A stretch of 62,133 bases of DNA from Ruminococcus bicirculans (ex Wegman et al. 2014). GTDB lineage: Bacteria > Bacillota > Clostridia > Christensenellales > DTU072. Of this stretch, positions 4,624-62,083 are shown piece by piece. Position numbers and translations under genes: made by a program. The notes beneath the pieces are model-generated. The model was not told the DNA's origin, searched no databases, and saw only the letters and a list, made by a program, of their open reading frames with translations. Numbering within the stretch: the first letter of the stretch is position 1; every line of letters begins with the position of its first letter. The stretch spans positions 1 through 62,133 of the forward strand of contig CAVIFU010000004.1 in assembly GCA_963642145.1 (NCBI GenBank), read 5' to 3'.

Positions 4624-5432
4624 AAGTTCTTAGCCGCCTCCCCTTTGTTGATTTTGCCCATTAAGAAGTTGGAAACAAGCACCAGCGCAAGCATTATCAA
4701 GCTCATGACGCTGCCCACGCCGTAGAGTTGATTTTCAAACTTCATATTGATGCTGTCGCCGAACAATACTATGCTGTTGTTGGAGAGCATTTGCGATATG
4801 GCAAATGCGGATATTGTGGGGATAAACACCATGGTTATACCGCTCATTATCCCGGGCAGAGATAGCGGAAGGGTGGTTTTGACAAACGTCGTTACGGGAT
4901 TCGCGCCAAGGTCCTGCGCAGCCTCCGCGTAACACTTATCTATATTGCTTATAGTGGTATGCAGCGGTAAAATCATGAACGGAATAAAGTTATACACCAT
5001 GCCGAATATTACCGTGCCCATGCCGAGAGATATTTCCAAATTCTCGAATATCGTTTGCAATGCGTAGGTGCGGATGAGGAAGTTGACCCACATCGGGAAC
5101 ATGAACAACAGCACGATTATACTGCCCGACGACCACTTACTCAAAATGTAGGCAACCGGATAGCCGAGTAACAGGCACAGCGCGGTAGTAATGAGCCCTA
5201 CCGCCAAGGAAACGCCGAGCACTTTGAGGCTGGCGCCGTCGGTAGCGAGCGCTTTGAAGTTTTCAAAGCTGAATTTGCCGTCCGCGATAAAGGCGTTGAC
5301 AAGCACGATTACAAGCGGAATTACGACGAATAAGAGCAAAAACAATATGTAAGGATACGAAAATACGCTCCTCGTCAAGCGAAAATTCTTAACCTTTTTG
5401 ACAAGTTTTTGTCCGAGTTCTTTTATTTTCAT
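4617..5432 (-). CDS. potB: Spermidine/putrescine ABC transporter permease
   Basis: A permease with the EAA loop (YAEAAQDLGANPVTTFVKTTLP), overlapping potA by 4 nt. Confidence 0.9.
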   Translation of the reverse strand: MKIKELGQKLVKKVKNFRLTRSVFSYPYILFLLLFVVIPLVIVLVNAFIADGKFSFENFKALATDGASLKVLGVSLAVGLITTALCLLLGYPVAYILSKWSSGSIIVLLFMFPMWVNFLIRTYALQTIFENLEISLGMGTVIFGMVYNFIPFMILPLHTTISNIDKCYAEAAQDLGANPVTTFVKTTLPLSLPGIMSGITMVFIPTISAFAISQMLSNNSIVLFGDSINMKFENQLYGVGSVMSLIMLALVLVSNFLMGKINKGEAAKNLW

Positions 5433-16700: not shown

Positions 16701-19700
16701 ATTCTCTGCGCCTTGTCAACGTTTAGGAAGTAGACGCGGTAATCGAGCATTATAGGAGCTGCCGAAACGGCTATGGAATAGTTATCCGCTATGTTGTTCA
16801 AAGTAAGGCTGTACTCGGTGGTTTCGTAACCTATCGGCTCATTGACTTGCTCGGAGCTACTCGATTTGGTGTAGGAGATCGACGAAATCCTGTAACCTTC
16901 TTTGGCTTTGATGACGAATTCGGCGTTTTGTCCGCTGCCCAAAGACGCGAACGTGTAGGTCGAATCGCTTGTCGTTACGTCGTCATACGTTACGGTGAGG
17001 TTGTCGCCGATCGAGAAAGTCGCGTAATACGTCGCTCTTGCGAACGTAAACACTATCGTGTAATCCGCCTCAACGCTCTTTATCGTATATAACCCGGTCC
17101 GAGTCCTGTCGTTGTATACGTACTCATTCTCGTCTTTGATCGCGTCGGAGGTAACCTTATACGACTTGATGTAATATCCGTCCGACGTATTGGCTTCAAC
17201 GGACGCAAAGTCTCCGTAATACGCAACGAATGACTCGCTTACCGTGCCCACGCCGCCGGTGTACGACGCCTTGATTTTATAATACAGCTTGTCGTACTCC
17301 ACGGTAAACTCGGTATCGCAATTTATGCCGTCTATGATAAATTCCATTTGCGTCACGCGATAGTCGCCGTTTTTCAAATCGGCGTATTCGTCTTTGCCGT
17401 TGATTTTCAGTCCGATTACCTTGTAGCCTTCACGCAAAGCGTACGGATCGACAATGGTGCCGTTCGCGCGCACGCTCTTGATGTAGTAGCCGTCGTCTGC
17501 CGTAACCGTGAACGAAGGCTTGTCCCCCTCTTTAATATCGCCCGTCGTATCGGCTACGATACTGCCGTTGGCGTTATCGTCCGAGGGCAACTTGACGGTA
17601 TACGTTACATCGCCGTAAACTATCGTTACCGATACGTCGGCGACGCAGTTTTCCACCGCAAATGAGTAATATCTCGCGTCAGACGGGATATCCGTGCGAC
17701 CTACGCCGCCCACTGTCACGCTGAGGATACGTTTATGTTCCGGAGGCGTGATTTCAAAGTAAACGCCCGCGCCGTATCCCACGGTAACCGTGCCGTTTTC
17801 TTTGATATATTGCTTTTCTTCGTCCGGAGCGCCTATCTCGTTATATGAGACTACGCCGGCTTTACCGGTGCCGTTGACTACGTAGATCTCATACTCTTCT
17901 ACGGAGAACTTAGCTTCAACGACGTAATTTTGCTCGATTAACGCTTTTATATCAACGTCGTAATACGCGCCTTCCTTTGCAAAGATGCCGGTGTTCTCGT
18001 CGCCGTTGATAACTACGCTTACGAGAGAATAACCGGTGCTCGGACGGAACCTCAACTTGAAATCCGAAATTACCGGCATGTCGATTCCGGAAGAGATCGG
18101 CGTTTCTTTCTCATAAACGGTGCCGTCTATATCCTCAACGGATTCCACCGCGTAAGCGGTACCGGAGCCGTTGATGTACACGTTGAGAGACTTGGTGTTG
18201 ACCTCGAATACCGGCACGACGTAAACAACGTCTTTTTGGACGACGTAAGTCCTGTCTATCGCTACGGAAGTGGGCGCGTAGGACGCGTCGGCAAGGAACC
18301 AGCCCTTGAACGTATAGTTTTCTTTGTGCGGGGTGATGTCCGGATAATCAAATTGTACGGAATCGGCTATTTTGTCGTTGTAGCGCACTTTGACGACTCT
18401 TCCCTTGTAAGTCGAGTCATAGCCGCGCGCCTCATCCTCAAAATCGGCGTCGTAATCGCTACTGCCTTTGAGGAAGACAACCGTCTCGATATTCTTTTGC
18501 CAATCGGTAACCAACGTGGCGTTTTGCTCGAAGATGGTATCGTTGGTGACGTACACCGGCGTGCCGTCCTCTTTGGTCGCGCCGTTTTCGATATACCAAC
18601 CCTTGAAAGTGTTGCCTACGGCGGTAAGCTTGGTTAAATCTTCCACATCGTAATATTTGCCTATCGGTTCGCCGTAAGGCAAAGTCACGGCATTGCTACC
18701 GGAATCGCCTATCTTGATCTCGCCCAATGTGTTGGAAAACGTTATCGTACTTTCCACAAAGACAAAATGCGCCTTGACATACAAGTCGTCAACGCCCTCC
18801 TTAGGCGGCGTAAACGATAACACGTACTCGTCGGTGTTGTCCGTGTTGGAAGAGGAGAAACTCATCGTCTTACCGCCTGTCCCTACCGCTATGGACGTAG
18901 CCGACGCATTAGTGGCAAGATCTATCCAGTTGCCCTCGGTATTGCGTATGGACCAGCCTATAAACTTTCGACCCGAATAGGGCGCGATACGCACGGTCGC
19001 AATTTCTTCTCTCTCGTAATAATCGTAAATCTCCGTGTTGGAAGCGGCGCCTCCGAGGCTCACGCCCTCTTTGTCGGTAGTAATATCCAAATGGAAGTCA
19101 ACCGCATACTTTTCGAACACGGGCATGATGTTGGTATCTTGGATGATGGAAGAATAATCTTTGTCCCAACCGACGAATTTGTATCCGTACAGTTGCATTT
19201 CGCCTTCGCTTTCTTTCGGGATATAAGTCGGCTTTTCGCCGTGCAAAACGGTTTGTTCGCGTGAAGTGGTGCCGTCCGGATAATAAAATACCACCGTGTA
19301 GCTTTGCCTTTTGAACGTTGCAATGAGCTTCATGCTCTTGCTTACGCTTTTGTCGGTACGGGAAGCGTTGGGATTGCCGTCCGACCACTCATAGAAATAA
19401 TAACCTTCGTCCGCTATGGCTCGGACGGTATCGGCGTTGCCGCCTGCGATGACTTTTTGTTCGGCAGTGCCGTCGATTCTACCGCCGGTGCCCGCAACGT
19501 ATTCGACTACGAGTTGCGTGGGTACGACGTTGAAATCCACCTTTTGCGTAAATCCGCCGTAATTGAGAATTACGTCTTTGCACTCACCCTCTTTGCTGAC
19601 GTCCAGCCCGTCGTAGACAAGCTCGGAGATGGGAACCTTTTTGGTTTCTCCGTTGTCGTAACGCACGACGGCATAGACTGTGGTCAAGTCCGCGTTAACG

Positions 19701-23872: not shown

Positions 23873-26503
23873 TTAGGCATTTCTGCCGTTAACAAGATCA
23901 TAGTATAGGTCTTTGCTGTTCGGGACCGGATCGCCTGGCTCTATGTACGGGGCGCCCTTGGTGAAGTCGGTACAAACTATGTAACAGTCGTTACTTAACT
24001 TAAGACCTGCCGGAGCACCGGAAATGAACTTTGTAACCACCCCCTCGACGGCGGTAAGTGCATCGCTCTCGCTCAGCGGTACGGAGAAAGCTTTCATTTG
24101 AGCAGATTCGTCAATGCGGACTCTGTTTACGTCCGCTGTCGCCATCAGCCCTATGCCGAATATGCCAAAGCTTACGTACTGTTTGTTGTTGTAACGGTAA
24201 TAGGCGTTCTCGAACGCGCTTCCGCCGATTATTTCCTTAACTACGCCGGACGCGGCTTTCATCAACAGATCCTGAACATTATCGTCCAGCCTAAGGCGAA
24301 CGAACATGGTTTTTGTTACGATTTCCGCTATTTCCGTACTTTCTTTCCAATTGTAGACGTCCATGAACCCTTCGACGTTGATATTTGCTTTCATCGGCTT
24401 ATTGATCGTCTCGGAATTGGTTATATCCAAATACAATTGCACCGCCGCGCCGCCCGACGACTTAAACACGTTGTTGCGTAGCGTGATATCACCTTCAAAA
24501 TAATACTCGCTGCTATAGCTCAAACTGAAAGAGGAAAGATAGTTGTCGCCGAAAATACAGCCCTCAACAAGCACTTGTTTACACCTGTTTATGGTAATCC
24601 CTTCCGTAGTGTTAAACACTTGACAATAGCGTATCTCTATGGGCGTTTCCATCGTGTGGAATTCTATCATACCGCCGGTATTGGTGGCTTCCTCCACGCT
24701 GTTCGCGCCCTTAATGGCTACGTCCTCTATGATAAATTTGCCTTCGCTTATGTTGTTGTGGTGGTCGTAGGTATCGTTATATTCGTACATCACTTTGGGC
24801 GAAAGAACGCGCCAATAGGTCCACTTATTTTCCCGTGCCGAAAGCTCCGCGTAATCGAATGTAAAGCCGTTACCGTATATGCTCGAGAACAACCCGTACG
24901 TGCATGTAGCCACAATATCGTTTTGGAATACGAGATCGTATTCTTGCGCGTTTATAGCCGCCTTCATTTGCTCGTAGTCGTATAAATTGACGCTCTTTAC
25001 CTTGCTTTGGAAAGAGAATTTGAAACTGCGGCTGACTCTCTCCACTTTTCTGTTGTCAACCACAAGGGTTGCCGTTACCGTGACGGAATTGCCTGCAACC
25101 GCTTCTTTGAAAGTGATGTCCACGTCGTTGTTTACACCGGTAGGCGTCAAACTCGCGTATTCCTCGTTGTCAACGCTCCAAGCGACGTCAAAGGTGCCGT
25201 TGTCGTCCAACAGACCGAAGTTATAGGTGCTGGTAAGGTTATAGCATTTGCCCGCGCCCCAAGGTTTGAGCGCGCCGTCTTCCGCCTCCGTAAGCCAATA
25301 CAGCCCCCAAGTGCGTTTGAGCTGAATGCCGCGTTTGGCGTCCGCCGTACCTAAGGCAAGCTCAAACGTCACGGGACGCTCTTTAACGGTATATTCCTTA
25401 TCGACGCTACCGCCGCCGTATGTCGCCGTTATAGTGGCAATGCCTGCTTTAAGCGGCGTCAGCGCGCCGTCCGAAGACACTTCGAGAACGTCCGGCGCAC
25501 TGCTTACGTATGTAACGCCCGAAACGCTTTTGCCCGTCTCCAAATAGGCTATGCCGGTAGTGTAGGGACCGTTGTTTGTGTAGACGGTGTCCAAACCGTC
25601 CGTGAATCCTACGGCTCCCTTGTCGCACTTGACTACCGTTACGTCGGAAACAAGCGCGTCCTCGCCTTCGCGTTCGTATCTAAGCTCGAATCTGTTGAAA
25701 GTCGCTTGCTCTTCTATCAATTTGACTTTTGTGTAAGCGGGGGACAGCGCGATATTTTGTAGTACCCAGTCTGACGTTATTCCGTCCGATTTCGAAATAT
25801 AAACACGCTCGGTACGCGCCACACAGCTGTACGTATCGATCTCTATTTTCTTGCTGAGGTAGTTCGCGTCTTTGTCGCGCATATCGAGGACGATCGTGGT
25901 TGCCCCGTGTCCCACGGGCGTGACAACGCCGTTGGAATTTACCGTGGCTACACTATCGTCTTCGCTCCTCCAAGTCGCCGAGACAAGCGCGTCTATCGGG
26001 TATATGTCGGCTATGAGTCGCGTTCTGCCGGTAAGTTTCAGATTCTTTTCTATCGCGTCGCCGTTGGCGTCGTATATGTTCACGTCGTTTATGGTGTCGG
26101 TCGTTACGTTTATCGTTACTTCCTTAGCGATGTTGACGTTGGCGGTGGCGCGCACGTCCAATTTGCATATGCCTACTTCCTTCGGGATGACGGAATACTT
26201 GTTGGTTTTGCCGATGCGTTCAAGTTTGACTCTGCCGTCGCCGGCGTCCTCGTCTATCTCGTAAGTTACTGTCTTGTCTTTGGTTATCCCCGGCAGCACT
26301 TCGAATATCAAAAACTCGTTCTTTTCCTCTATATCGACTTTGACTATGTCTCCGCGTTTCAGCTCGACGTTATCCGAGTTCTTGACGATGATGTCTGTGG
26401 GATTAACAGGCGTTGTGCTTTGGATAATAGCCCCCGTCGCGTTAAGCGCAAGAACGACAATTACCGGTATAAGAAAAATTACGCCTATCAGGAATTTTTT
26501 CAT
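23873..26503 (-). CDS. Secreted Big_2 (Ig-like) plus parallel beta-helix protein, paralogue B (876 aa)
   Basis: Signal peptide MKKFLIGVIFLIPVIVVLALNA, Big_2-like blocks (ATVNSNGVVTPVGHGATTIVL; VLEVSSDGALTPLKAGIATITATYGG) and C-terminal beta-helix-like repeats (IRYCQVFNTTEGITINRCKQVLVEGCIFGDN). Confidence 0.85.
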   Translation of the reverse strand: MKKFLIGVIFLIPVIVVLALNATGAIIQSTTPVNPTDIIVKNSDNVELKRGDIVKVDIEEKNEFLIFEVLPGITKDKTVTYEIDEDAGDGRVKLERIGKTNKYSVIPKEVGICKLDVRATANVNIAKEVTINVTTDTINDVNIYDANGDAIEKNLKLTGRTRLIADIYPIDALVSATWRSEDDSVATVNSNGVVTPVGHGATTIVLDMRDKDANYLSKKIEIDTYSCVARTERVYISKSDGITSDWVLQNIALSPAYTKVKLIEEQATFNRFELRYEREGEDALVSDVTVVKCDKGAVGFTDGLDTVYTNNGPYTTGIAYLETGKSVSGVTYVSSAPDVLEVSSDGALTPLKAGIATITATYGGGSVDKEYTVKERPVTFELALGTADAKRGIQLKRTWGLYWLTEAEDGALKPWGAGKCYNLTSTYNFGLLDDNGTFDVAWSVDNEEYASLTPTGVNNDVDITFKEAVAGNSVTVTATLVVDNRKVERVSRSFKFSFQSKVKSVNLYDYEQMKAAINAQEYDLVFQNDIVATCTYGLFSSIYGNGFTFDYAELSARENKWTYWRVLSPKVMYEYNDTYDHHNNISEGKFIIEDVAIKGANSVEEATNTGGMIEFHTMETPIEIRYCQVFNTTEGITINRCKQVLVEGCIFGDNYLSSFSLSYSSEYYFEGDITLRNNVFKSSGGAAVQLYLDITNSETINKPMKANINVEGFMDVYNWKESTEIAEIVTKTMFVRLRLDDNVQDLLMKAASGVVKEIIGGSAFENAYYRYNNKQYVSFGIFGIGLMATADVNRVRIDESAQMKAFSVPLSESDALTAVEGVVTKFISGAPAGLKLSNDCYIVCTDFTKGAPYIEPGDPVPNSKDLYYDLVNGRNA

Positions 26504-29235
26504 AAGTTACCGCCTCTGAGTTTGCTGTACAATTCTATGCTGTTGGGCACAGGGTCTCCGGGCATTATTTCGGGCTCTCCTTCGGTAAAGTCCGGGCAAA
26601 TAATGTACGACGTGTTGCCTATCGTTTCTACGTTCATGGTGTTCTTTAATATACTCTCTATCGTTCCCAAATTAGGCGTAAGCGGTTTACCGCTTTCGTC
26701 ACAGAAATTAAGTTCTATCGTAGCCAATTGCGCGCTGTCGGCTATCGTTGTGCAATCTTTATCGTACTCGTACATCGCGCCGCACTCGAATATGCCCATA
26801 CTTACATATTTTTTGCCGGCATAGCCGTAATACATTTTCTCCGAGCCCTTGGTGCCGGAGCCTACCGCCTCCTTGATAATCTTCGATACGGAACCCGAGA
26901 AGAAGTTGATAATTCCCTCGCCGTTCTCTACGTATCCGAGTACGTACTGGAATACCATCTTGGTTATGGCGTCTATGAATTCTTCCTCTTCTTTCCAGTT
27001 GTAGATATCCAAACAACCGTCTATCGTCAGTTTCGGCGCGTAATTGCCCCTGAAATCGTTATCCGGGGAAGACTGCATGAAGATGATGGCGGGACCTTGG
27101 CTCTGCTTGATGACATTATTGCGTAACGTCAACTCGCAATTGTTGCCTTTTCTGCGATGATTGACGTTCGGGTACGTGGCAAGCAAGCTGTGATTGTTGT
27201 TATCGCCCAAAATACATCCTTCCACCGTCGCATTGCTCAGCTCGTCAAATTCTATGCCCCTATCCGTGTTGTAGATTTGGCAGTACCTGACGTTGACGGG
27301 TAATTCCTTAGGCGCGTCAACACGTCCGTATGTTCCGTATCTCGAGCCTGCCACTCCCTTGGTACCGTGCGTATAGTCCAGCGTTTCTTTGTATATGCCT
27401 CTTGCGCGTATGCCGGAACCGCGATTGACGGCTTCTTCCAACGTCGGCGCGTTGATGACTATCAGGTCGTCGAAATCTATGCTGTAACCGTCATCCGCCC
27501 AATATCCGTGTTCGTCCAATATCGTGCAGACTTCCCAGAAATTATAGTATATCGCGCCGGTATTGGCGTTCATCTCTTCGTCCGGGATGCCGGACGCGTC
27601 CCATTTGAAACCGTTGCCGTATATGCTTGCCGTCAGCTCTTCCGTAACGGCGTTCGCATAAATATCGTTTTGCAATACGAAATCGTTGCACTTCATATTG
27701 GCGTTTACGTACTTGACTTGGTCGAAATCGTATACGTTGACGCTTTCCGTGCGACTGCGCATCTCAAACGTGAAACTGCGTTTCGCGCGCGTATCGACCC
27801 TGCCGTCTACGATAACGGCGGCGGTCAAGGTGATTTTTTGACCTTTGGCGGCGTCTTTGAACGATATGTATACTCCGTTGCCGTCGGTAGGCGTCAAAGA
27901 GGCGTACTCATCGTTATCGACGCTCCAAGCAACGTCGAACGCACCGCTGTCGCCGTAAATGCCGAATGCGAATTTATCGGTAACGGAATATCCCGTATCC
28001 GTCTTTTGGAGCCACTTGAAGCCCCATACCCTCTTGAGCTGTATGCCGAGCTTGGCGTCCGCACTGCCGAGGGTGAGTTCAAACGTCACGGGGCGTTCCT
28101 TGACGGTATAAACCCGATCGAGAGTGCGACCGTTGTATGTTACGCGAATTGTGGCTTCACCCGCGCAAACGGGCTCCAAGAGTCCGTCGGCGCCCACGCC
28201 GAGCACATTCGGATTACTGCTCGAATACGTCACGTTGTCCGTAATGACGTTTCCGCTCGCCAAGTCCGCAATCCTCGCGTAATATACGCCGTTGCGCGTG
28301 TATACGCACGTAATGTCGTCGGCAAACCCTACCGCGCCCTCTTCGCACGCCTCCACTTTTATCGTTTGCGTGTAGATTTGTTCGTCCGCGGTACCTGCGG
28401 CGTAAGTATACGTCAGAGTATAGCTGCCGTCCGCGTTCTTGGTAACGACGGTATCGTTAGGGGAAAGCGCGTAATTGTTCCTGATGTACTCTTCGTTCAC
28501 TTCCGCGGAAGAGTATACGGTATTGCTCTTTGCCACGCACGTGGCTGTGCTTACGGCAAACGAACGGGTGACGAATCCCGAGTTCTTGTCCTTTGCCCTG
28601 ACGGTTATTTCCGTAACGCCGTGCCCTACGGGCGTAACGACGCCGTTTTCACTGACAACGGCTACGTCCGGGACGGAGCTTTGCCACTCCACGTTACTGC
28701 CGGACAACGCTTCCGCCGGGTAGATATCGGCGTAAAAACGCGTCGCGCCGCTTATCTCATACTGCTCGTCTGCCGAAACTCCGAGTTCTTTGCCGTTCGC
28801 GTCGTACACGTTTATCGACTGCAACTTGTTGCTGGTAACCAGTATGGAAACTTCTTTGTACGCGTTGATATTCGCCTTGGCGCGAATGGTGATTTTGGTA
28901 GATCCTATCGATACCGGCACAAGGCTGTATCTGTTGGTGCTGCCAATGCGTTCGAGCTTGACTTCGCCGTCGCCGGCGTCCTCGTCGCGCTCATATGAAA
29001 TCTCCCTGTTTTTGGCTATCGTCGGCAACACTTCCACTATGATGAACTCGTTCGTGTCGTTGATGTCAACCTTGATCACGTCGCCTTTGCCTATCTCGGA
29101 ATTGCCGGAATCTCGCACGTCCAAGCCGGTAGGATTGACCGGAGTGGTACGCTGAATTATCGCGCCCGTCGCGTTAAGCGCAAGGACGACGATAATCGGA
29201 ATTATGAAGATTATGCCTACCAAAAATTTTTTCAT
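26500..29235 (-). CDS. Secreted Big_2 (Ig-like) plus parallel beta-helix protein, paralogue A (911 aa)
   Basis: The first ~36 aa are near-identical to paralogue B. Shared blocks include KERPVTFEL.LG.ADAK.GIQLKR.WG, FDVAWSVDN.EYASLTPT, SIYGNGF and PGDPVPNS. An ATGA overlap joins it to the downstream paralogue. Confidence 0.85.
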   Translation of the reverse strand: MKKFLVGIIFIIPIIVVLALNATGAIIQRTTPVNPTGLDVRDSGNSEIGKGDVIKVDINDTNEFIIVEVLPTIAKNREISYERDEDAGDGEVKLERIGSTNRYSLVPVSIGSTKITIRAKANINAYKEVSILVTSNKLQSINVYDANGKELGVSADEQYEISGATRFYADIYPAEALSGSNVEWQSSVPDVAVVSENGVVTPVGHGVTEITVRAKDKNSGFVTRSFAVSTATCVAKSNTVYSSAEVNEEYIRNNYALSPNDTVVTKNADGSYTLTYTYAAGTADEQIYTQTIKVEACEEGAVGFADDITCVYTRNGVYYARIADLASGNVITDNVTYSSSNPNVLGVGADGLLEPVCAGEATIRVTYNGRTLDRVYTVKERPVTFELTLGSADAKLGIQLKRVWGFKWLQKTDTGYSVTDKFAFGIYGDSGAFDVAWSVDNDEYASLTPTDGNGVYISFKDAAKGQKITLTAAVIVDGRVDTRAKRSFTFEMRSRTESVNVYDFDQVKYVNANMKCNDFVLQNDIYANAVTEELTASIYGNGFKWDASGIPDEEMNANTGAIYYNFWEVCTILDEHGYWADDGYSIDFDDLIVINAPTLEEAVNRGSGIRARGIYKETLDYTHGTKGVAGSRYGTYGRVDAPKELPVNVRYCQIYNTDRGIEFDELSNATVEGCILGDNNNHSLLATYPNVNHRRKGNNCELTLRNNVIKQSQGPAIIFMQSSPDNDFRGNYAPKLTIDGCLDIYNWKEEEEFIDAITKMVFQYVLGYVENGEGIINFFSGSVSKIIKEAVGSGTKGSEKMYYGYAGKKYVSMGIFECGAMYEYDKDCTTIADSAQLATIELNFCDESGKPLTPNLGTIESILKNTMNVETIGNTSYIICPDFTEGEPEIMPGDPVPNSIELYSKLRGGNL

Positions 29236-51625: not shown

Positions 51626-51739
51626 AGGCACCTCCGAAATTTTTCAGTTTACATTATACATCAAGCCGCCTCGTTTGGCAATAATTACTCCGTAATATGT
51701 GGAATTACTAATTTATTACTTTATTTCGCGCGCGTTTTT

Positions 51740-51748
51740 TGGTATAGT
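51740..51748 (+). promoter_or_regulatory. Extended -10 element (TGgTATAGT) 7 nt upstream of the RF-like ATG
   Basis: TG at 51740-51741, TATAGT at 51743-51748, ATG at 51756. No Shine-Dalgarno sequence lies between them. Confidence 0.35.
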
Positions 51749-51755
51749 AATAGTT

Positions 51756-52703
51756 ATGGACAAATCCTTTGACATGCTAACGAAAAAAATCGCCGAACGT
51801 ACCGCGCGTTACAACGAACTTGTCGCGCTCACGGAAGCGCCGGAAATAATCGCCGACAACAAGCTTTGGCGGAAGTATGTCTTGGAAAAAACTGCTCTCG
51901 AACGCTCGGTAACGCTGTACGAAGAACTAAAAGTCGCTTGCGACTTGGGCTTAGCGGAAGAAGCCTCGGCTTTGTCCGACGAGCTCGCGATAACGCTTCT
52001 CGACCAAACGGACGCCGACCGCGGAGGCGCGTTGATGGAGCTCGACGCCCGGGACGACGCGTCATGCAGACTTGCAAGCGAAATGCTTACCATGTACTCC
52101 GCCTATTGCAAAAAAGAAAAATTCGATTTTGCCGTAATAGACGAAGAGCGCACCCCTGCCGGCATAAGCCGTTGTTCCGTAAGCGTGGAGGGCGTAAGCG
52201 CCTACCTCAAATTGAGCGGAGAAATCGGTTTGCACCGCTCTACCGACGGCGGCACGGTAACCGTGACGGTACTGCCTACCGCCGAAACGCAAGACTCAAC
52301 GGAGATAGACCCTAAGGACGTGCGCACGGACATATTCCACGCAACGGGCGCCGGCGGACAAAATATAAACAAAGTGGCAACCGCGGTACGCATGACGCAC
52401 CTACCGACGGGAATAGTCGCCGTTTGCCGCGACGAACGCTCGCAGCTACGCAATCGCGAACGTTGCAAACAAGCCCTATCCGCCAAAGTCAACGCCTATT
52501 ACCGTGAAGCGGAGGACGCCAAGCGTCTGAAACTCAAACGCGATTCCGACGCCGCGGCTAAGCTGAAAAGAATACGCCTCTTCGACCGCAAAAACGGCAC
52601 TTTGACCGACGTCCGCACTCTTGCGAAAGTCGATCTCAAAGAAGCCCTCGACGGCAACATATCCAAACTTGTCAACGCCATGATCATACTGAACAAACTA
52701 TGA
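51756..52703 (+). CDS. Class-I release-factor (RF1-like) paralogue: GGQ domain intact, decoding loop missing (315 aa)
   Basis: ATGAGGQNINKVATAVRMTHLPTGIVAVCRDERSQLRNRE (GGQ codons at 52353-52361). Where RF1 carries the PxT loop, this protein has only GLHRSTDGGTVTVTVLPT. Confidence 0.85.
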   Translation: MDKSFDMLTKKIAERTARYNELVALTEAPEIIADNKLWRKYVLEKTALERSVTLYEELKVACDLGLAEEASALSDELAITLLDQTDADRGGALMELDARDDASCRLASEMLTMYSAYCKKEKFDFAVIDEERTPAGISRCSVSVEGVSAYLKLSGEIGLHRSTDGGTVTVTVLPTAETQDSTEIDPKDVRTDIFHATGAGGQNINKVATAVRMTHLPTGIVAVCRDERSQLRNRERCKQALSAKVNAYYREAEDAKRLKLKRDSDAAAKLKRIRLFDRKNGTLTDVRTLAKVDLKEALDGNISKLVNAMIILNKL

Positions 52704-55093
52704 GCTCGAACGAACAAAAAATCCGCATACGCTTCGATACGACGGTACTTTCGGATAAGTCCGAAGTTTACGCTACGGAAAAGTTTCTTAAAGAAACTCG
52801 TAAACTGAAAGACGCCGACGACTTTGCAGTAAAACTCGCGGAGTCGCTGACGAATACGAATTTACCACTTAATTCCGTCTACAAAATCAAGGTCGGAACA
52901 TCGGTAGCGGTATTCGCTTTCGGCGCGCACATAGATGACAAACGTTTGGCGCCGCGTGACGTTGTATTCCTTGAATACCGCAATTCGGGTCCCGAAATTC
53001 TGCGTAACGATTCCCGTTTGAGCTACTTTATGCAATCGCACGACGAGTACGAAACTTACGTTCGCGCGGACGGATACGTTATTAAAGAAAGCGACGTCAA
53101 AAAATTATACCGTCTGCTGACGGCGGCGTCCGGATTTCCGCTACTGACGGAAGAGCAAGCGGAACTCGTGCGCACGGAGAACAAAAACGTGCTCGTGCGC
53201 GGAGTTGCCGGCAGCGGAAAAACCAACGTCTGCATAGACAAGATAATCTACTGCGCTTGCCGAGAGTATGCCGGCAAAACGCTGTACTCCACCTACTCGC
53301 GCGGACTTTTGAACGACACGGCATACAGGGTAAAACGCTTCGCGAAAGCCGTTAAGCTCCTTGCCGACGAGATGGAAAGCGGCAAAGCCGTATTCGACGC
53401 AAAAGACAAAATCGTGGCAGTCGAGAAGAAGCTCGGCATCACTTTGGACGTAGACGGCGCCGAGAACATACGCGCCAAGCTACTACGGATCTACGAATAT
53501 CTTACAAACAAAGTCGATTACGCGCTCATAGAGGATCTTTACAGAGGCTGTATCCGCTCGGACAAAGAAGTCGTGCATAGTCAAACCTTCCCGAAAGGCT
53601 TTATTGCCGAAGCTTCCGCTTACAGGAACGGCAATCTACAACGTTTGAAGGGCACATCCGAAGAAATTATCTACAAAGAGATCTACGGCATGATATACGG
53701 CGCGCCCTGCCAAAACATGCTTACGGCGGAGGAATACGCCGCCAAACGCGAATCGAGTTTCACCAAGCAGGAGTGCGACGCCGTGTACCGCCTATCCAAG
53801 GATTACGGCGCATACCTTGCAAAAAACAACCTGACCGACAACAACTTCATGTCGAGGGAACTGCTTGCTTCCATAGACAAACTACCGCGCTACTCGCTGA
53901 CGATACTCGACGAAGTGCAGGACATGACGGAAATCAATTTGCTTTTGATGAGCAAGATCTCGTTGAAGCTGTTTTGCGTGGGCGACGCCCTGCAAATGAT
54001 AAATCCCTCCTACTTCTCGTTTGCCTCGCTCAAAAAACTGCTGTACGGCGCGGACGCTACGGAAGTCAAAGAACTCACCGCCAACTTCCGCAATTCCGAC
54101 AAGATCGCCGACATCGTCAACCGCCTCGGCGACTTGAACAAGAGTAAGTTCGGCGTACACAACTTTGTTTTGGACGGCATAAGCGTGGATTCTTCCGTGC
54201 GCGCGGACGCCGTGTATGTCTGCGATCCGACGTTTGCGGAGACTTTTGCAAAAGAGAAGTTTGACGCCTACACCTTGGTAGTAGCGACGGAACGCCGCAA
54301 AGCCGAAATGCGCAAGCTCCTCGGCAATCGCGAAATACTGACTGTATCCGAGATCAAGGGCTTGGAGCGCGACACCGTCATTACGTACAACCTACTGTCC
54401 GACAACGCCGACAAATGGTCGGAGTTCGAAAGAGCCAACGTCAACCGCAAAACGGCGGACGAGAACTCGGTATACCGCTATTACTTCAACTTGTTTTATG
54501 TCGGCGTTTCTCGCGCAAAGCTCAATTTATACGTGGCTGAACGCGCGAACCTACCGTTGTTTGCCCCGTTTTTCAAGGAAAACTTTGTAACCGCAAACGC
54601 GACTGCCGCCGTTTCGAGGCTGCGCGACGTTTTGGCGTCCGTTGTCATCGAGCAGGACGAAGTCATAGATCGCATAGAAAAGTTCATATCCTTAGGGCAA
54701 TACGACAACGCGAGAGTGGCGCTTTCGGGACTTGACGACGAAGCCGTGCGCGACTTATACAAGAACAGAATCGACGTCAACGAAGCCTATATCGCTCGCG
54801 GAGACAATCGCGGCGCCGGCATAGCGTACTGGTCGCTCGGTATGTACGAGGACGCTCGCGTATCGTTTGAATTGACTGGCGATCAAAAGCTATTGGCGTT
54901 CTTTGACGCCTGCGTTTCTCGCGATAACCGCGCGCTCGACTACGACATAGTCAGATTTTACCCCGAGATGGCAGGAGATAAAACCGCCGCCGACCTCATA
55001 CTCAACACACTCAAAACGGATCTTTCGGACATAAAGACGCGTTTGCGCGTACAAAGCGAAGCTCTGCGCAGAAAGGAGAAGAAAAATGGATAA
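52700..55093 (+). CDS. Superfamily-1 (UvrD/Rep-like) P-loop helicase with an unassigned N-terminal domain and a TPR-like tail (797 aa)
   Basis: Walker A GVAGSGKTN (aa 168-176), Walker B LTILDEVQDMTE, EIKGLERDTVI, and motif VI FYVGVSRAKLNLYV. Two TPR-like LGxY(D/E)xARV units lie near the C-terminus. Confidence 0.85.
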   Translation: MSSNEQKIRIRFDTTVLSDKSEVYATEKFLKETRKLKDADDFAVKLAESLTNTNLPLNSVYKIKVGTSVAVFAFGAHIDDKRLAPRDVVFLEYRNSGPEILRNDSRLSYFMQSHDEYETYVRADGYVIKESDVKKLYRLLTAASGFPLLTEEQAELVRTENKNVLVRGVAGSGKTNVCIDKIIYCACREYAGKTLYSTYSRGLLNDTAYRVKRFAKAVKLLADEMESGKAVFDAKDKIVAVEKKLGITLDVDGAENIRAKLLRIYEYLTNKVDYALIEDLYRGCIRSDKEVVHSQTFPKGFIAEASAYRNGNLQRLKGTSEEIIYKEIYGMIYGAPCQNMLTAEEYAAKRESSFTKQECDAVYRLSKDYGAYLAKNNLTDNNFMSRELLASIDKLPRYSLTILDEVQDMTEINLLLMSKISLKLFCVGDALQMINPSYFSFASLKKLLYGADATEVKELTANFRNSDKIADIVNRLGDLNKSKFGVHNFVLDGISVDSSVRADAVYVCDPTFAETFAKEKFDAYTLVVATERRKAEMRKLLGNREILTVSEIKGLERDTVITYNLLSDNADKWSEFERANVNRKTADENSVYRYYFNLFYVGVSRAKLNLYVAERANLPLFAPFFKENFVTANATAAVSRLRDVLASVVIEQDEVIDRIEKFISLGQYDNARVALSGLDDEAVRDLYKNRIDVNEAYIARGDNRGAGIAYWSLGMYEDARVSFELTGDQKLLAFFDACVSRDNRALDYDIVRFYPEMAGDKTAADLILNTLKTDLSDIKTRLRVQSEALRRKEKKNG

Positions 55094-55802
55094 CAACGAA
55101 GTCAAAAACCTTATAGACGCATTCAAGGGTTACCGCGATTTACTCGCGCCCATACAGTCCAACCTCAACGACTTTATCGAAACGTACGATGAAGTCAAAG
55201 GCGACATCGAACGCTTGAATTCGGCGTTCTCGGGCGACGTCAAAGGCAATTTGGACAAGATATATCGCAATCTGTCCTCACAGGCGGAAAAATCCGCCGA
55301 CCTATCCTCCGCGATAGACCGCTTTTTGCGTGCAAGCGGCAAGTACCTTGCCGATACGGAAAAACTTATAGGCACATTGTCCCGCATATCCGATTCCCTC
55401 GGCGCGGTAAACGCGATAGAGGCAAAAGCCGAGGAGCAATTGGGCAAACTCGACTCCGTCCTCGAAGAAAAACGCAAAAACTACAACGTCAAGGAACTCC
55501 AAAAGACCGTCGAGAGTTACAACGAAAACGTCCGAAAGATGAGCGACTTCATCAATCGCGACGTTGCTCTGACCGTAGCGGACAGCAACAAGACGTTGTC
55601 CGACATGAAATCGACAAACAAAGCCCTGCTCGAATCGATTTCCTCCGAAACGGCGGCAGTATCCGATTTAGCCGCAAAGTACGCAGAAAACAACGCTTTA
55701 CTTCGCAAAATCGTAGAAAAAAAGGACGTGGACGAAGCGTATATCTACGATATGCTCGACGCGTGGGCAGAAGATCGCAAGGTCAAACGTAAGAAAAAAT
55801 AA
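55086..55802 (+). CDS. Hypothetical all-helical/coiled-coil protein (238 aa)
   Basis: Heptad-like, Leu/Glu/Lys/Ser-rich sequence with no TM segment and a basic tail KVKRKKK. It overlaps the helicase gene by 8 nt. Confidence 0.8.
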   Translation: MDNNEVKNLIDAFKGYRDLLAPIQSNLNDFIETYDEVKGDIERLNSAFSGDVKGNLDKIYRNLSSQAEKSADLSSAIDRFLRASGKYLADTEKLIGTLSRISDSLGAVNAIEAKAEEQLGKLDSVLEEKRKNYNVKELQKTVESYNENVRKMSDFINRDVALTVADSNKTLSDMKSTNKALLESISSETAAVSDLAAKYAENNALLRKIVEKKDVDEAYIYDMLDAWAEDRKVKRKKK

Positions 55803-57973
55803 TGGAAGACACTATTCGCAAAATCCATAAGGCGATACTCGCCGACGACGTAAAAACGCTGAGCTCCGTCTTCGTCGAAAGACGGTATTTGACGTTGTCT
55901 TTCGGCAGATTCCCGGTGCTCTCGCTCGCGTACATGTACGACGCGCGCAAGGTCATCAAACGTTTTGCTCCCGACCTCAAAAGAGTCGGTTCTTACGAAT
56001 ACACGGACGAATTCCCGGAGGATTACGTCAAGTTCAAGTCGCTTGCCGGCAAGGCGCTGCGCCTGTACTCGGACAAAACCGTTTCTCCCGCGGAAATTGC
56101 CGTACTCAAAGGCTACGGTTCGGAAGCAAAGTCAATACTTGACGACAGCAAGACGTCCAAGACCGCCGACGCCATCGCCGAACTGTACCGCGTCAAAGAA
56201 GGGCGTACCGTGCGCGACAAGAGCGGCAACGTCGTTATACCTCGGAGCAAGGCGCCGATGCAAGTAATAATTGTGGCGATATTGACAATCGTCCTTGCCT
56301 TGGGCGCTACGGGCGTCACGGCATACGCGTATAGAGTCGTGCCGTACCTAAACGGTAACGGACAAGACAAACCTTACGTGATATGTAACGCAAACGTACT
56401 TACGGAATTGCTCGCCTCGGAAGAGGAATCCAACTGCACGCTGGGCGCGGACATCCGATTATCCGACGTCAAGCAAACCGCCTCTAAACTCAATTTGGAC
56501 GGGTGCGGTTACACGATTTATGTGGACGGCGCGTGGAGCGGACCGCTCTTTTCGACAATAAGCGGCAGCATGAAAAACGTCCGCTTCGTCTTTGAAAATC
56601 TCTCGGCAAGCTTAGGCGCGGAGCAAGGACTCATTGCCAAAGAGGTTACCGGCACGATGAGCGGAATTACCGTCACTGCAAATGCGGTCGATCTCACTTT
56701 GAACGGTAACGGCGCCGTGATAGCATACAAAAATGCAGGCACCGTCGGCGACGTGACGGTTAATCTCAGTGGTACGATAAACGAGAGTTCGGGTAGCGAA
56801 CAATCTAATTTCGGGTGCCTGTTCGCGGTAAATTCGGGCGCCGTGGCAAACGTAACGGTCAATTTGGATCTGAGCGTTACGGGGGACGCGGAATCCGTTA
56901 CTTCCGAAAGTGAAGCCTCCGAAAAAGGCGATTATATCTTTGCCGGAGTCGTGGGCGAAAACAACGGTTCGATTTCTTCCGCGACGGTAAACGGCACGTT
57001 GAACGCGGTATCGCTTGACGTAAGCGCAATAGTTTGTTCCAACGGTACCGACGGCACTCTTACGGCGTGCGTCAACAACGCCGACATCACCCAACGCTCC
57101 TCTTCCGCTTTTTGGAATCCGAACGTAGCCGGAATAGCGTTTGAGAACAACGGCAAAATCACGTCCTGCGTAAATAACGGTAGTCTTTGTTCGATATCGG
57201 ATCAAACCGAGTCGAAGTCCGTTAACGCGATAGTTTGCGGAATCGTGGGCACAAACTACAAAGACGTCCGCCAATGTACCAACAACGGCGCGCTGACGGC
57301 TACGACAAATTACGGTGCCTTCCGCATAAGCGGAATTTGCAACATCAGTATCGGCACGATAGAGGGATCGACCAACACGGCAACGCTCACGGCGTCATCC
57401 GCTATGAATAGCGCGGACGATACAAACGTATTTTCTTTTGCCGGCGGCATAAGTGCCGAGAACTACTCGTTGATTTCGGAGTGCAAGAGTACGGGCGACA
57501 TCAATCTCGACTTAGCCGTTACATGCCTGTATGCGGGCGGAATTTCTGCCTATAACCACATAAGCACTAGCGCGCAATACACGGCAACGATAGAAAAATG
57601 CGGTACTTCCGGCAAAATAACCGCCAAAACGGACAAAACGACAAACTGGTTATTTATCGGCGGCATAAGCGGATACTTCGCAGGCTACATACAAGATTGC
57701 TTTACTTCGGTTGAGATAAGCGCTCCGGAGATAATCAGTTCCGAGTCTCAATCCGGCGGCACCATCGTAGACGGCATTTGCGGCGCGGCGGTAAACAGTC
57801 GGGCATTACCTACGTCTTGCTACTTTTTGAGTCGCGATAATTATAAGTACGGCGTTTGCAAAATCTCGTCGGAAACCTACTCGCGCATACTCTATTCGGT
57901 TGAAAAAGAGATCGCCGGAATGACAGCATGCGAAACCATGGAAGACCTGATAAATTCGGGGGTGTATTGGTAA
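55802..57973 (+). CDS. Type-II membrane protein: ~150-aa cytoplasmic head, one TM, extracellular GLUG/beta-helix-like repeats (723 aa)
   Basis: TM helix MQVIIVAILTIVLALGATGVTAYAY (aa ~153-177). Repeats include FAGVVGENNGSISSATVNG, VAGIAFENNGKITSCVNNG, VCGIVGTNYKDVRQCTNNG, FAGGISAENYSLISECKSTG and FIGGISGYFAGYIQDCF. A TAATG overlap joins it to the upstream gene. Confidence 0.85.
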   Translation: MEDTIRKIHKAILADDVKTLSSVFVERRYLTLSFGRFPVLSLAYMYDARKVIKRFAPDLKRVGSYEYTDEFPEDYVKFKSLAGKALRLYSDKTVSPAEIAVLKGYGSEAKSILDDSKTSKTADAIAELYRVKEGRTVRDKSGNVVIPRSKAPMQVIIVAILTIVLALGATGVTAYAYRVVPYLNGNGQDKPYVICNANVLTELLASEEESNCTLGADIRLSDVKQTASKLNLDGCGYTIYVDGAWSGPLFSTISGSMKNVRFVFENLSASLGAEQGLIAKEVTGTMSGITVTANAVDLTLNGNGAVIAYKNAGTVGDVTVNLSGTINESSGSEQSNFGCLFAVNSGAVANVTVNLDLSVTGDAESVTSESEASEKGDYIFAGVVGENNGSISSATVNGTLNAVSLDVSAIVCSNGTDGTLTACVNNADITQRSSSAFWNPNVAGIAFENNGKITSCVNNGSLCSISDQTESKSVNAIVCGIVGTNYKDVRQCTNNGALTATTNYGAFRISGICNISIGTIEGSTNTATLTASSAMNSADDTNVFSFAGGISAENYSLISECKSTGDINLDLAVTCLYAGGISAYNHISTSAQYTATIEKCGTSGKITAKTDKTTNWLFIGGISGYFAGYIQDCFTSVEISAPEIISSESQSGGTIVDGICGAAVNSRALPTSCYFLSRDNYKYGVCKISSETYSRILYSVEKEIAGMTACETMEDLINSGVYW

Positions 57974-58194
57974 TGAAAGGCAAAGTTTACAAAATAATTT
58001 TCTTATCGATTGCCGCCGCGGTGCTGATAACGGACATCGTGTTCGCCGTGCTGACGGGGATTTCCGCCGCTTCGATCAAAGCGGGGCTGTCGTTTGTCCC
58101 CGTATGGTTCAAGCCGTATTGCATAGCGATATTCGTTATCAACCCTTTGCTCGCGATACTCGGCGCGCTTTATCCGATATTTTGCAAAAAATAG
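57973..58194 (+). CDS. Small 2-TM membrane protein (73 aa)
   Basis: MKGKVYKIIFLSIAAAVLITDIVFAVLTG...CIAIFVINPLLAILGALYPIF, with a TAATG overlap to the upstream gene. Confidence 0.6.
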   Translation: MKGKVYKIIFLSIAAAVLITDIVFAVLTGISAASIKAGLSFVPVWFKPYCIAIFVINPLLAILGALYPIFCKK

Positions 58195-59824: not shown

Positions 59825-59862
59825 TAAAATAACGGCGGCTCATACGAACCGCCGTTTGTGTT
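59825..59862. terminator. Bidirectional terminator (katA / TasA-like gene)
   Basis: AACGGCGG (59831-59838) pairs with CCGCCGTT (59849-59856). AAAAT lies upstream and TGTGTT downstream. Confidence 0.6.
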
Positions 59863-59899: not shown

Positions 59900-62083
59900 T
59901 TAGCCTTGAGGTAGAAGCGTCGTATCGCCGTTAGCTACCCACGTCGTTCCATCGTTTGTAATAACCTCCCAACTACCGTTGTTGCTTTGTTCAACCGAGA
60001 AGCCGCTAACGCCGTCAACTTTAAATATCTGTCCTTTGTCCCCATTGTCATAGTCGACAGGCGAAGTAACCGTGGTGTTTTTTACGGTTATCGTCGCACC
60101 CGATTGTGCACATGCCAAACGAACAAATCTACCGTTCATACCGATCAACTTGTTGCCGTCAAAGGTAAACGTACCGCAGTTCGCTTTGTTTGAGATCTGA
60201 ACGTTGTTACCTGAACATCCGTTAAACGTATTGTTCGATACCGTGAAGTTTGTCAATGTAGCAGTTGTGTTGTTCCAAGTAATTGCCTGATAATAAGAGT
60301 TCATTGTGCAACCGACAATGGTTATATTGTTGAAGCCCTTTACGCCGTCGTCTATGCCACAGAAGTTAGCGTCTGCCCCATCACTGCCTGCGTAGAGGAA
60401 GTGTACAACGGTGTTGCTCTTATCGCCCGTGCCGACGCAATCTTTTACGGTAAAGTTGTTTACATACAAGGTGGAGCCTTTGCAATTAGTTGCAGTATCG
60501 CTCAACTCAATTGCCGTTTGTTCTGTATTGTTAAAGGTTATACCTTCTATCGTGATGTTTGTAAGTGACAAGTAGCTGACAAAGCCTTTGTCCTTGTTCA
60601 TTTCGTCTTGGTTGGATGCTTTTGTACGTGCGCCTGCTTCGACTTTTATGCCGTCACAAGTAACGGTTGCGTTGTCTGCCGCCTTGATCGTCAATCCGTC
60701 GATTGCCCGATAGTATGCGGGGTAGTAGGTGACGTTTACATCCAGATCCTCGCGCCTCGTGCTTGCAGTCTTGGTTTGGCGCAAATACAGCATGCTGTAA
60801 TCGCCTTCGGTAAGAACCAATGTCATACCGTCGATGGAGCCGTATTTGCCGTCAAGATAATCCTGAACGTTGCTGCTGCTGTTTACCGCGACGGCGTTTT
60901 CAATATTGTAGATGATGTCTATCGGGCTGGCATGGAGGAGGTGTAGCGTAATATCGCCTGTATCGTAATTATATTCCGCATATTCGGCTGTTGTGCTTGC
61001 GGTTGTAAGGAGGAGTGCGCCATTGTGATAAATCTTTACGCCTGTCAAACCCGAGATATACTTGATAACTACCGTAACAAGAGTTTCATTGGTGTCGGCT
61101 ACCGGTAACGTCAAATTGTAGCTTGCTACGGACTGGGTCGCTTCAACGCCCACGCTTTGATTCTTCGCGGTGTCGGAAAGCGTTTTACCTACATACTCTA
61201 ATTTCTGCGCAACCGTTGTCTTCTTTGTTCCGTCACTGCCGGTGCTTACGTCGGTTGTGTCGAGAACAACACCCGTAGGATAAGTAACGGACATGACGTC
61301 GTCATCAATTACCTGAGCTTCGTCACCACCAACGGAAACCTTTCCGTCGTCAGTCTCCGTAACCGTAAGATTGCCGTTTGCCTTTGTCACAATGGCAGCG
61401 TTATCATCGGTTGCGGTGTTGCCTTGTACTTGCTCAATATGGAATAACAGACTGCAAGACATGTCTTTGTAGTCATTGTCTACATCGGTAGGAAGCTCTA
61501 CGTAGCAAGTGTATTCTTTTATTTTGGTTCCACCGCTTTCGGTTGCTATATCCAATGATTCCCACTTGCTGTAACCGTTGTTTACCGTTATGCCGGCAAT
61601 ATTAAATTCCAATACGTCAAGCAATTTGCCGCCATCGAGGTTTGTGCCGACAACGCTCATTCTGTACTTGGTCTTGACGTTGCTGTAATTGGTAATAGTA
61701 AGCTTAAACGTAACTTTGTCCCCGGGGACCATTTTATCAAGGAGCAAAAGTTGCTCGTTGTTTTCCTCAGCCAAAGCAACGGTTCCGCCGGTAGCGAAGG
61801 TACCGCCTTTTCCGTCATCATTGGTAGTCGCCAAGTTGGTATCCGTCTCAACGGCATTGCCGTCGTCCATTGAAATAGACGTAGGCGAATACAGCAAAAG
61901 ATCGCTTGCAACGGCAGTAATCTCAATTTTACCGCTTGTGACATTTACGTTTACTTTGTCTTCACTTGTGAATAACGCAAACGTTGCGCCGACGATGATT
62001 CCCGTGCACAGCAAAATCGCGAGCACGGCGGAAACAATAATGTTTCGCTTGGTTCTTTGGTTCTTTTTGTTTGTTTTTTCCAT
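59900..62083 (-). CDS. Secreted protein with SipW-type signal peptide, TasA/camelysin-like N-domain and C-terminal parallel beta-helix (727 aa)
   Basis: The N-terminus IIVSAVLAILLCTGIIVGATFALFTSEDKVNVNVTSGKIEI resembles the TasA-class signal, and MVPGDKVTFKLTITNYSN is camelysin-like. PbH1-like repeats include ITIEGITFNN, FTVKDCVGTG, ITIVGCTMNS and FTVSNNTFNGC. Confidence 0.8.
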   Translation of the reverse strand: MEKTNKKNQRTKRNIIVSAVLAILLCTGIIVGATFALFTSEDKVNVNVTSGKIEITAVASDLLLYSPTSISMDDGNAVETDTNLATTNDDGKGGTFATGGTVALAEENNEQLLLLDKMVPGDKVTFKLTITNYSNVKTKYRMSVVGTNLDGGKLLDVLEFNIAGITVNNGYSKWESLDIATESGGTKIKEYTCYVELPTDVDNDYKDMSCSLLFHIEQVQGNTATDDNAAIVTKANGNLTVTETDDGKVSVGGDEAQVIDDDVMSVTYPTGVVLDTTDVSTGSDGTKKTTVAQKLEYVGKTLSDTAKNQSVGVEATQSVASYNLTLPVADTNETLVTVVIKYISGLTGVKIYHNGALLLTTASTTAEYAEYNYDTGDITLHLLHASPIDIIYNIENAVAVNSSSNVQDYLDGKYGSIDGMTLVLTEGDYSMLYLRQTKTASTRREDLDVNVTYYPAYYRAIDGLTIKAADNATVTCDGIKVEAGARTKASNQDEMNKDKGFVSYLSLTNITIEGITFNNTEQTAIELSDTATNCKGSTLYVNNFTVKDCVGTGDKSNTVVHFLYAGSDGADANFCGIDDGVKGFNNITIVGCTMNSYYQAITWNNTTATLTNFTVSNNTFNGCSGNNVQISNKANCGTFTFDGNKLIGMNGRFVRLACAQSGATITVKNTTVTSPVDYDNGDKGQIFKVDGVSGFSVEQSNNGSWEVITNDGTTWVANGDTTLLPQG

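Follow-up and report, generated by a model that had tools for sequence, protein, structure and literature searches.

Five genes lie head to tail on the forward strand of a 62,133-nucleotide (nt) stretch of a contig from Ruminococcus bicirculans (ex Wegman et al. 2014), a member of the Christensenellales (CAVIFU010000004.1, assembly GCA_963642145.1); we call this whole stretch of DNA the window and the genes g1 to g5 (Table 1). The original prediction, made from the letters of the window and its open reading frames (ORFs), had proposed that they form a translationally coupled block pairing a release-factor (RF) paralog with a superfamily 1 (SF1) helicase, and that the combination belongs to no known operon, ribosome-rescue pathway or anti-phage system. 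Our analysis bears out both proposals. No family in Pfam, NCBIfam, PADLOC or PHROGs and no solved structure describes this module, and a literature search returned nothing relevant on the combination of RF and helicase, on Christensenellales release factors or on RF-like defense proteins. Although its components belong to known superfamilies, the system taken as a whole corresponds to no kind described so far.

Table 1. The g1–g5 block and its promoter, with positions in the window and lengths in amino acids (aa)
Feature	Position	Strand	Length	Assignment
Operon promoter (putative)	51720-51748	+		weak -35 TTTATT, 17-nt spacer, extended -10 TGgTATAGT at 51740-51748
g1	51756-52703	+	315 aa	RF1-derived class-I release-factor paralog
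g2	52700-55093	+	797 aa	UvrD/PcrA-like SF1 ATPase/helicase
g3	55086-55802	+	238 aa	orphan helical/coiled-coil protein
g4	55802-57973	+	723 aa	type II membrane protein (predicted)
g5	57973-58194	+	73 aa	small membrane protein with two predicted transmembrane helices, accessory

Results

The five genes form one coupled unit

All four junctions overlap, each at the position first reported: g1 and g2 share ATGA (-4), g2 and g3 overlap by 8 nt, and g3/g4 and g4/g5 both join through TAATG (-1). The block had also been described as free of any hairpin followed by a T-run, and a consensus terminator scan agrees, finding no convincing forward-strand terminator inside it; the terminator-like matches across the scanned region (20, against 14.2 +/- 3.5 in shuffles) are not above chance, and the only strong hairpin comes after the downstream catalase gene, at 59831-59856.

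To judge how far this arrangement is shared, we relied on the helicase family, which occurs in 206 GTDB species genomes, and on the best 80 loci, which were fetched and inspected; these are named Christensenellaceae, Christensenella sp., Christensenellales, Candidatus Stercoripulliclostridium or generic Clostridia metagenome-assembled genomes (MAGs). Synteny scoring based on hidden Markov models places g1, g2, g3 and g4 in the same order and on the same strand in about 68 of the 80 species loci. The tight spacing and the overlaps are conserved as well: g2 runs into g3 in 54 of 79 loci and is separated from it by no more than 15 nt in 74, g3/g4 and g1/g2 are no more than 15 nt apart in 64/73 and 44/68 loci, respectively, and g4 overlaps g5 in 22 of 27. 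Moreover, the pairwise distance matrices of the four proteins g1 to g4 correlate with r = 0.80-0.94, which points to co-divergence and to an inheritance that looks vertical. In both synteny and junction overlaps, the original prediction thus withstands the refutation proposed for it. We conclude that g1 to g5 are one coupled unit, or operon, whose conserved core is g1–g4 and whose accessory member is g5.

The catalase gene begins at 58238, 43 nt past g5, and no terminator had been noticed between them; the linkage is nonetheless incidental. We rejected catalase as a member of the unit, because among the loci read it follows the block only in the window and in three others (L004, L014 and L030), and other loci carry QueH, HAD, pur genes or rpsF-ssb-rpsR downstream.

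Two loci depart from the common order while keeping the RF paralog. In L076, g1 is divergently oriented, and in L028 a minus-strand RF gene without the PxT decoding loop (13270-14352) stands directly after g5, an arrangement that suggests relocation of the RF paralog, not its loss.

The release-factor paralog has kept GGQ and lost its decoding loop

The product of g1 matches the Pfam domains PCRF (PF03462, 62.8 bits) and RF-1 (PF00472, 93.3 bits). It fails the defining tests of RF1, ArfB and PrfH alike, scoring below the NCBIfam cut-offs for the RF1 equivalogs NF001859 (165.2 bits against 400) and TIGR00019 (160.7 against 423), for PrfH (60.1 against 166.65) and for ArfB (36.6 against 100). 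The catalytic GGQ, at residues 200-202, is invariant across the family and its flanking motif nearly so. When aligned with solved RF1 structures and canonical RF1s, the g1 of the window and all of the approximately 70 helicase-linked homologs are seen to have lost the PxT/RIHTS decoding loop through a deletion of 5-12 residues, and in g1 helix alpha5 has an altered GGxE tip; g1 is therefore, as had been recognized from the sequence, a GGQ release-factor paralog without the decoding loop. Across 54 species, strong conservation is confined to residues ~188-240, in the GGQ domain, and domains 1, 2 and 4 have decayed.

We considered whether g1 might be the canonical RF1 of the organism, or part of a recoding, and rejected this, since g1 lies far below the RF1 cut-offs and locus L065 has a canonical RF1 with PxT on the same contig, 5 kb upstream of the operon; g1 is thus an additional factor. 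Members of the RF-like family are few, and each one that was checked adjoins the helicase gene.

A UvrD-like motor outside the named orthologous groups, followed by an orphan helical protein

The second protein matches the Pfam UvrD-helicase domain (PF00580) with 36.1 bits against a cut-off of 23 and carries the SF1A motifs I, Ia, II, III, IV, V and VI of UvrD type, all of them invariant in 91 sequences, including Walker A and B, the GD..Q of motif III, the NYR of motif IV, the KGLE of motif V and the YVG.SRA of motif VI. Motifs and structural model together identify g2 as an intact UvrD-type SF1 ATPase or motor. Its scores against the NCBIfam equivalogs for UvrD, PcrA, Rep and HelD are only 13-22 bits, with cut-offs of 419-1144, and by sequence g2 is thus a member of the UvrD-like superfamily that stands outside every named orthologous group. 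PADLOC offered nothing more specific than generic GajB-like helicase matches (at most 57 bits, to motor fragments only).

In the AlphaFold2 model (predicted local distance difference test, pLDDT, 87; predicted template-modeling score 0.87), residues 1-148 form an alpha/beta N-domain that appears private to the family, the motor core (150-615) is predicted to have a small 2B region and, within domain 1A, a long helical insertion, and the C-terminal domain (619-796) is modeled as helical repeats ending in a long helix. The UvrD-like assignment first proposed is therefore sound, the unassigned N-domain is nearer 148 aa than the ~165 aa estimated at the outset, and the tail is helical as described, with only weak matches to TPR. 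The N-domain has no relative in PDB or Pfam; a weak Pfam match to DUF7013, below cut-off, was discarded when it was not reproduced on full-length proteins. Foldseek retrieves UvrD, PcrA and Rep (template-modeling score about 0.4), HelD bound to RNA polymerase, IGHMBP2, Upf1 and Sen1 for the g2 model, the DNA helicases (UvrD, PcrA) and the RNA helicases (IGHMBP2, Upf1, Sen1) matching at similar E-values.

The third protein, g3, was expected to be all-helical, and its similarities are confined to coiled coils and helical bundles: its PDB matches are generic and compositional, and a PADLOC match to ZorA is at the level of the coiled coil only (E 0.007). Just 73 relatives were found among 1.84 billion representative proteins, and the full-length ones are all 232-247 aa long. 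The alignment is nearly free of indels and has a mean column identity of 59%, at the top of the 55-59% range in which g2 also falls; the C-terminus is conserved as DVNEAYIYDILDKWAxxRKVKxKK.

The membrane components combine a conserved head with exchangeable surface domains

The topology of g4 and g5 rests on prediction. For g4 we predict a cytoplasmic head (residues 1-133) of ankyrin-like helical repeats with the motif GRFPxLSxxYLY, a transmembrane helix at ~153-184 and an ectodomain (192-720) that the AlphaFold2 model (pLDDT 83) folds as a parallel beta-helix. A single transmembrane helix is predicted in 66 of 66 orthologs, among which the cytoplasmic N-domain is the best-conserved part of the protein. 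Foldseek aligns the head locally with tankyrase ARC domains and DARPins at probabilities of 0.6-0.96, and the GRFPLLS of its motif resembles GxTPLH, although the Ank Pfam profile has no match in 18 g4 orthologs. The ectodomain is closest to beta-helices of IgA1-protease type (best, E 5.5e-3) and of pectate-lyase type.

The single transmembrane helix, helical cytoplasmic head and beta-helix described at the outset are thus all retained by the models, while the GLUG label holds for the family in part: the Pfam profile (PF07581) does not match the g4 of the window even at E<=10, but it exceeds its cut-off of 20.5 in two of six other orthologs scanned (L023, 56 bits; L097, 40 bits). In L095, a distant ortholog (2878-5079) replaces the beta-helix with BspA-type LRR_5 and six Flg_new repeats. 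The head and transmembrane helix therefore stay conserved while the ectodomain, a GLUG-type beta-helix in most lineages, is swapped between them, its length ranging from ~400 to 800 aa and that of the whole protein from 600 to 1006 aa; a subclade in which no g1 is visible (L023, L024, L026 and L033) has a very long g4 of 880-1006 aa.

The hydropathy of g5 is consistent with the two transmembrane helices first assigned to it. In 46 of 62 loci, a g5-like membrane ORF of 60-114 aa (one spurious call has 288 aa) starts right at the stop codon of g4 or close to it; one subclade lacks such an ORF. In L007 and L008, a 228-aa HlyIII-family (PAQR-like) membrane protein (16127-16813) occupies the g5 position and likewise overlaps the g4 stop.

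An extended -10 element lies just ahead of the g1 start codon

The block had been taken to begin at 51740, which is not a start codon; these letters are the TG of an extended -10 element, and the g1 ATG lies at 51756. The element ends 7 nt ahead of this ATG, and no Shine-Dalgarno sequence is present. The geometry recurs in a set comprising the window and 60 orthologous loci: in 39 of these 61, the g1 ATG follows a TAnnnT hexamer at a distance of 5-8 nt (mostly 6), with the TG extension in 35 of the 39 and often a good -35 box 17 nt upstream. A Shine-Dalgarno sequence is absent from all 39; 13 loci carry one instead.

Because the extended -10 lies so near the ATG and no Shine-Dalgarno sequence is present, we infer a transcription start that probably leaves the g1 mRNA without a leader. 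In the window, g2 and g4 also have no obvious Shine-Dalgarno sequence, and their starts overlap the preceding stop codons, so that translation of the whole operon probably depends on leaderless initiation at g1. The database gene call for g1 (P0001, 334 aa) starts at an in-frame GTG at 51699; in view of the ortholog alignment and the promoter geometry, the resulting 19-aa extension is probably an annotation artefact and ATG 51756 the true start.

The 124-nt spacer between aroC, on the minus strand, and g1 (51632-51755) holds divergent promoters, that of aroC being a near-consensus sigma-70 promoter (TTGCCA-17-TATAAT, 51681-51653) placed back to back with the g1 extended -10.

Housekeeping genes surround the block in varied neighborhoods

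When all flanking ORFs were clustered, no family recurred in more than 10 of the 80 loci, and further metagenome contigs carry the block in at least five different neighborhoods. Its neighbors include aroC-SDR-LMWPc, relA, rpsB-tsf, obg-yhbY and rpsF-ssb-rpsR. In the dozen or so loci whose neighbors were read with their Pfam domains, we found housekeeping genes and no defense-type partner, no RtcB gene and no nuclease gene next to the helicase. Even between genomes with helicases of just about 46% identity, the left flank of the block remains stable.

A phage or mobile origin was rejected: no relative of the helicase was present among 2.9 million viral contigs, and the PHROGs matches are to generic RF and helicase families. 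All carriers found are MAGs or metagenome contigs, and the top 120 helicase clusters contain no UniRef-sourced member.

Other genes of the window

Elsewhere in the window, the minus strand holds a single giant ORF of 4063 aa (7703-19894), whose product begins with a membrane anchor and is presumably a very large surface protein, and tandem paralogs of 876 and 911 aa (23873-26503 and 26500-29235) that overlap by 4 nt and have nearly identical N-terminal signals or anchors (MKKFL.G.IF.IP.IVVLALNATGAIIQ). A 727-aa secreted protein is encoded at 59900-62083, also on the minus strand, with the N-terminus …GATFALFTSEDKVNVNVTSGKIEI, which we take to resemble a SipW-type/TasA-camelysin-like signal region; its gene converges on the catalase gene, and the two share the strong hairpin at 59831-59856.

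Discussion

We tentatively favor the reading that the g1–g5 block encodes a membrane-tethered complex for stop-codon-independent ribosome rescue or quality control. Of the two functions first suggested, an envelope-sensing module with abortive-infection-like effectors and a stress-linked module for translation quality control, the second is favored because g1 has kept its GGQ while losing its decoding elements, because the operon probably has a leaderless start, and because it appears to be vertically inherited among housekeeping neighbors.

In such a system, transcription would start at or next to the g1 ATG to give a leaderless mRNA, and g2 to g5 would be made by termination-reinitiation coupling, yielding the subunits in fixed proportion. 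The GGQ domain of g1 would enter the peptidyl-transferase center and hydrolyze peptidyl-tRNA; because g1 cannot read stop codons, it would need a partner to select its substrate and to bring it there. The ATP-driven motor g2 may supply both this targeting and mechanical work, and could pull or strip the mRNA of a stalled ribosome, or a linked RNA polymerase and nucleic acid, in parallel to the HrpA and RQT helicases of collision rescue. A rigid coiled-coil scaffold, g3, may join the soluble g1-g2 pair to the cytoplasmic head of g4, which together with g5 would fix the complex at the membrane. Through its swappable surface domain, g4 may in turn let the envelope or the surroundings control the complex.

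Several points weigh against this reading. The links among the proteins, and between them and the ribosome, are ones that we infer. UvrD-like SF1A helicases are known for work on DNA and RNA polymerase, not on ribosomes, and Foldseek does not separate DNA from RNA helicases for g2, so that its substrate could be either nucleic acid. A large and variable surface domain is not readily explained by ribosome rescue, and leaderless starts may simply be common in the lineage at large. Finally, five loci (L023, L024, L026, L033 and L034) have g2–g5 with no g1 within the fetched sequence; since one subclade thus has no adjacent g1, the g2–g4 core can exist unlinked to the RF paralog, and perhaps without one.

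A first alternative, which we consider unlikely, is that the block resolves conflicts of transcription or replication: g2 would act on stalled RNA polymerase or DNA in the manner of HelD, PcrA or UvrD, g1 would free the coupled ribosome, and the membrane anchoring would reflect transertion, the coupling of transcription, translation and membrane insertion. Blocked transcription-translation complexes do need dedicated rescue (PMC13584721), the closest relatives of g2 in sequence and structure are PcrA, UvrD and HelD-RNA polymerase complexes, and the g2 model recalls HelD in the large helical insertion of its domain 1A and in its small 2B. Its N-domain, however, is modeled as alpha/beta and is not the secondary-channel coiled coil of HelD, its score against the NCBIfam HelD model is 20.6 against a cut-off of 419, and no link to RNA polymerase or repair genes emerges from the neighborhoods of the block.

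Slightly less probable still is envelope-sensing abortive infection, in which g4 would sense phage attachment or envelope damage and g3 relay the signal, upon which the helicase would attack phage nucleic acid and the decoding-blind RF abort translation globally. A variable ectodomain, swapped between GLUG beta-helix and LRR_5 with Flg_new, would suit such a sensor; PADLOC returns weak GajB-like and DRT-helicase matches for g2; and the architecture loosely resembles that of Zorya in that a membrane sensor and a helicase effector come together with a long helical relay. The PADLOC matches, though, cover the generic UvrD core, and GajA, ZorAB or any other partner gene is lacking. The setting is one of housekeeping genes with a left flank that outlasts considerable divergence of the helicase, no flanking family recurs in more than 10 of the 80 loci, no defense-type partner is present in the dozen or so whose neighbors were read, the viral contigs do not carry the block, and the conservation of g2 and g3, which co-diverge with their genomes, is unlike that of fast-turnover defense genes. 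An abortive-infection role is accordingly disfavored and less likely than translation quality control.

An improbable third possibility is an envelope or surface module in which the RF paralog has been recruited to a non-ribosomal task, for example an RsgI-like trans-membrane device that sequesters a cytoplasmic regulator. A conserved head and transmembrane helix with interchangeable surface modules is the pattern of a trans-membrane sensor, and g2–g5 persist without adjacent g1 in one subclade, but the most conserved part of g1 is the GGQ with its surroundings that contact the peptidyl-transferase center, which is hard to explain without ribosome-based catalysis, and neither a transcription factor nor a sigma factor is encoded in the operon. 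That unrelated genes lie together by chance, or that ORFs were miscalled, is effectively refuted by the synteny across about 68 of 80 species, the conserved overlaps, the co-divergence and the full-length homologs of every ORF.

Our findings may also bear on how bacteria without ArfB release stalled peptides. ArfB is absent from Firmicutes (PMC6514570, PMC11633108), and a ribosome-rescue role for the block would show what gut Clostridia without ArfB use instead. A 2019 census of bacterial RF paralogs comprises RF1, RF2, ArfB and PrfH only, and g1 would give a fourth lineage of such paralogs. A bolder claim, which we regard as rather doubtful, is that the block represents the first bacterial ribosome quality-control machine to couple a helicase to a stop-blind RF on a membrane anchor, one that may be gated from outside the cell. 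Should the block instead serve trans-envelope signaling or phage defense, a release-factor domain would for the first time be seen to act as an effector.

Comparison with known systems places the block beside several of them and inside none. Bacterial peptide release independent of a stop codon is so far known from ArfA with RF2, ArfB, ArfT, BrfA and PrfH, and helicase-driven rescue from HrpA. As to the motor, g2 shares UvrD-type motifs with UvrD, PcrA, Rep and HelD, and PcrA and UvrD are its best matches in PDB by sequence and fold; unlike these helicases, g2 has its own N-terminal alpha/beta and C-terminal helical-repeat domains, a reduced 2B and a different operon context. Among defense systems, Zorya and Gabija likewise include a helicase, and Zorya in addition has a membrane sensor and a long helical element, but the block has neither a MotAB-like ZorAB nor a GajA OLD nuclease and lies outside defense islands. 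We therefore rejected assignment to a known defense system, the PADLOC matches being limited to the generic helicase core.

Among rescue factors, ArfB, ICT1 and mtRF-R (C12orf65) are GGQ hydrolases that act without a stop codon, as g1 would. In ArfB, the GGQ domain stands alone with a basic C-terminal tail, at ~140 aa and without operon partners, whereas g1 retains a degenerate decoding superdomain and PCRF-type domains and is coupled to a helicase. A precedent is PrfH-RtcB, in which an RF paralog is teamed with a nucleic-acid enzyme (PMC6514570). Both there and in the block, a class-I RF paralog whose GGQ is intact, and whose reading of stop codons is non-canonical or absent, stands in a conserved operon beside a nucleic-acid-processing enzyme, at times joined by TPR or charged helical accessory proteins (PMC6514570). 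The differences are equally plain: PrfH, of ~200 aa, lacks domain 1, which g1, of ~315 aa, retains in shortened form; the partner is the ligase RtcB in the one case and an SF1 helicase in the other; PrfH-RtcB is sporadic and horizontally spread, while the g1–g5 block is lineage-wide and appears vertically inherited; and PrfH has no membrane components, in contrast to the block.

The logic of the block, as we read it, would be shared with systems that pair a helicase with an RF-like protein cleaving peptidyl-tRNA, namely HrpA, which splits and rescues collided bacterial ribosomes (PMC11419001), RQT (Slh1/ASCC3) with Vms1/ANKZF1, and Upf1 with eRF1; Vms1, moreover, contains ankyrin as well as coiled-coil elements and acts at the membrane of an organelle. 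The parallel is one of analogy and not of homology, as HrpA and Slh1 belong to SF2, Upf1 to SF1B, and Vms1 and eRF1 to the unrelated aeRF1 fold. If the bolder claim holds, the block would constitute a functional counterpart of the eukaryotic RQT-Vms1 or Upf1-eRF1 systems built from bacterial parts and filling the gap left in a Firmicute lineage by the absence of ArfB. If our reading is correct, its union of a decoding-blind RF1 paralog, an SF1 motor and a membrane tether would amount to a new design principle for translation surveillance.

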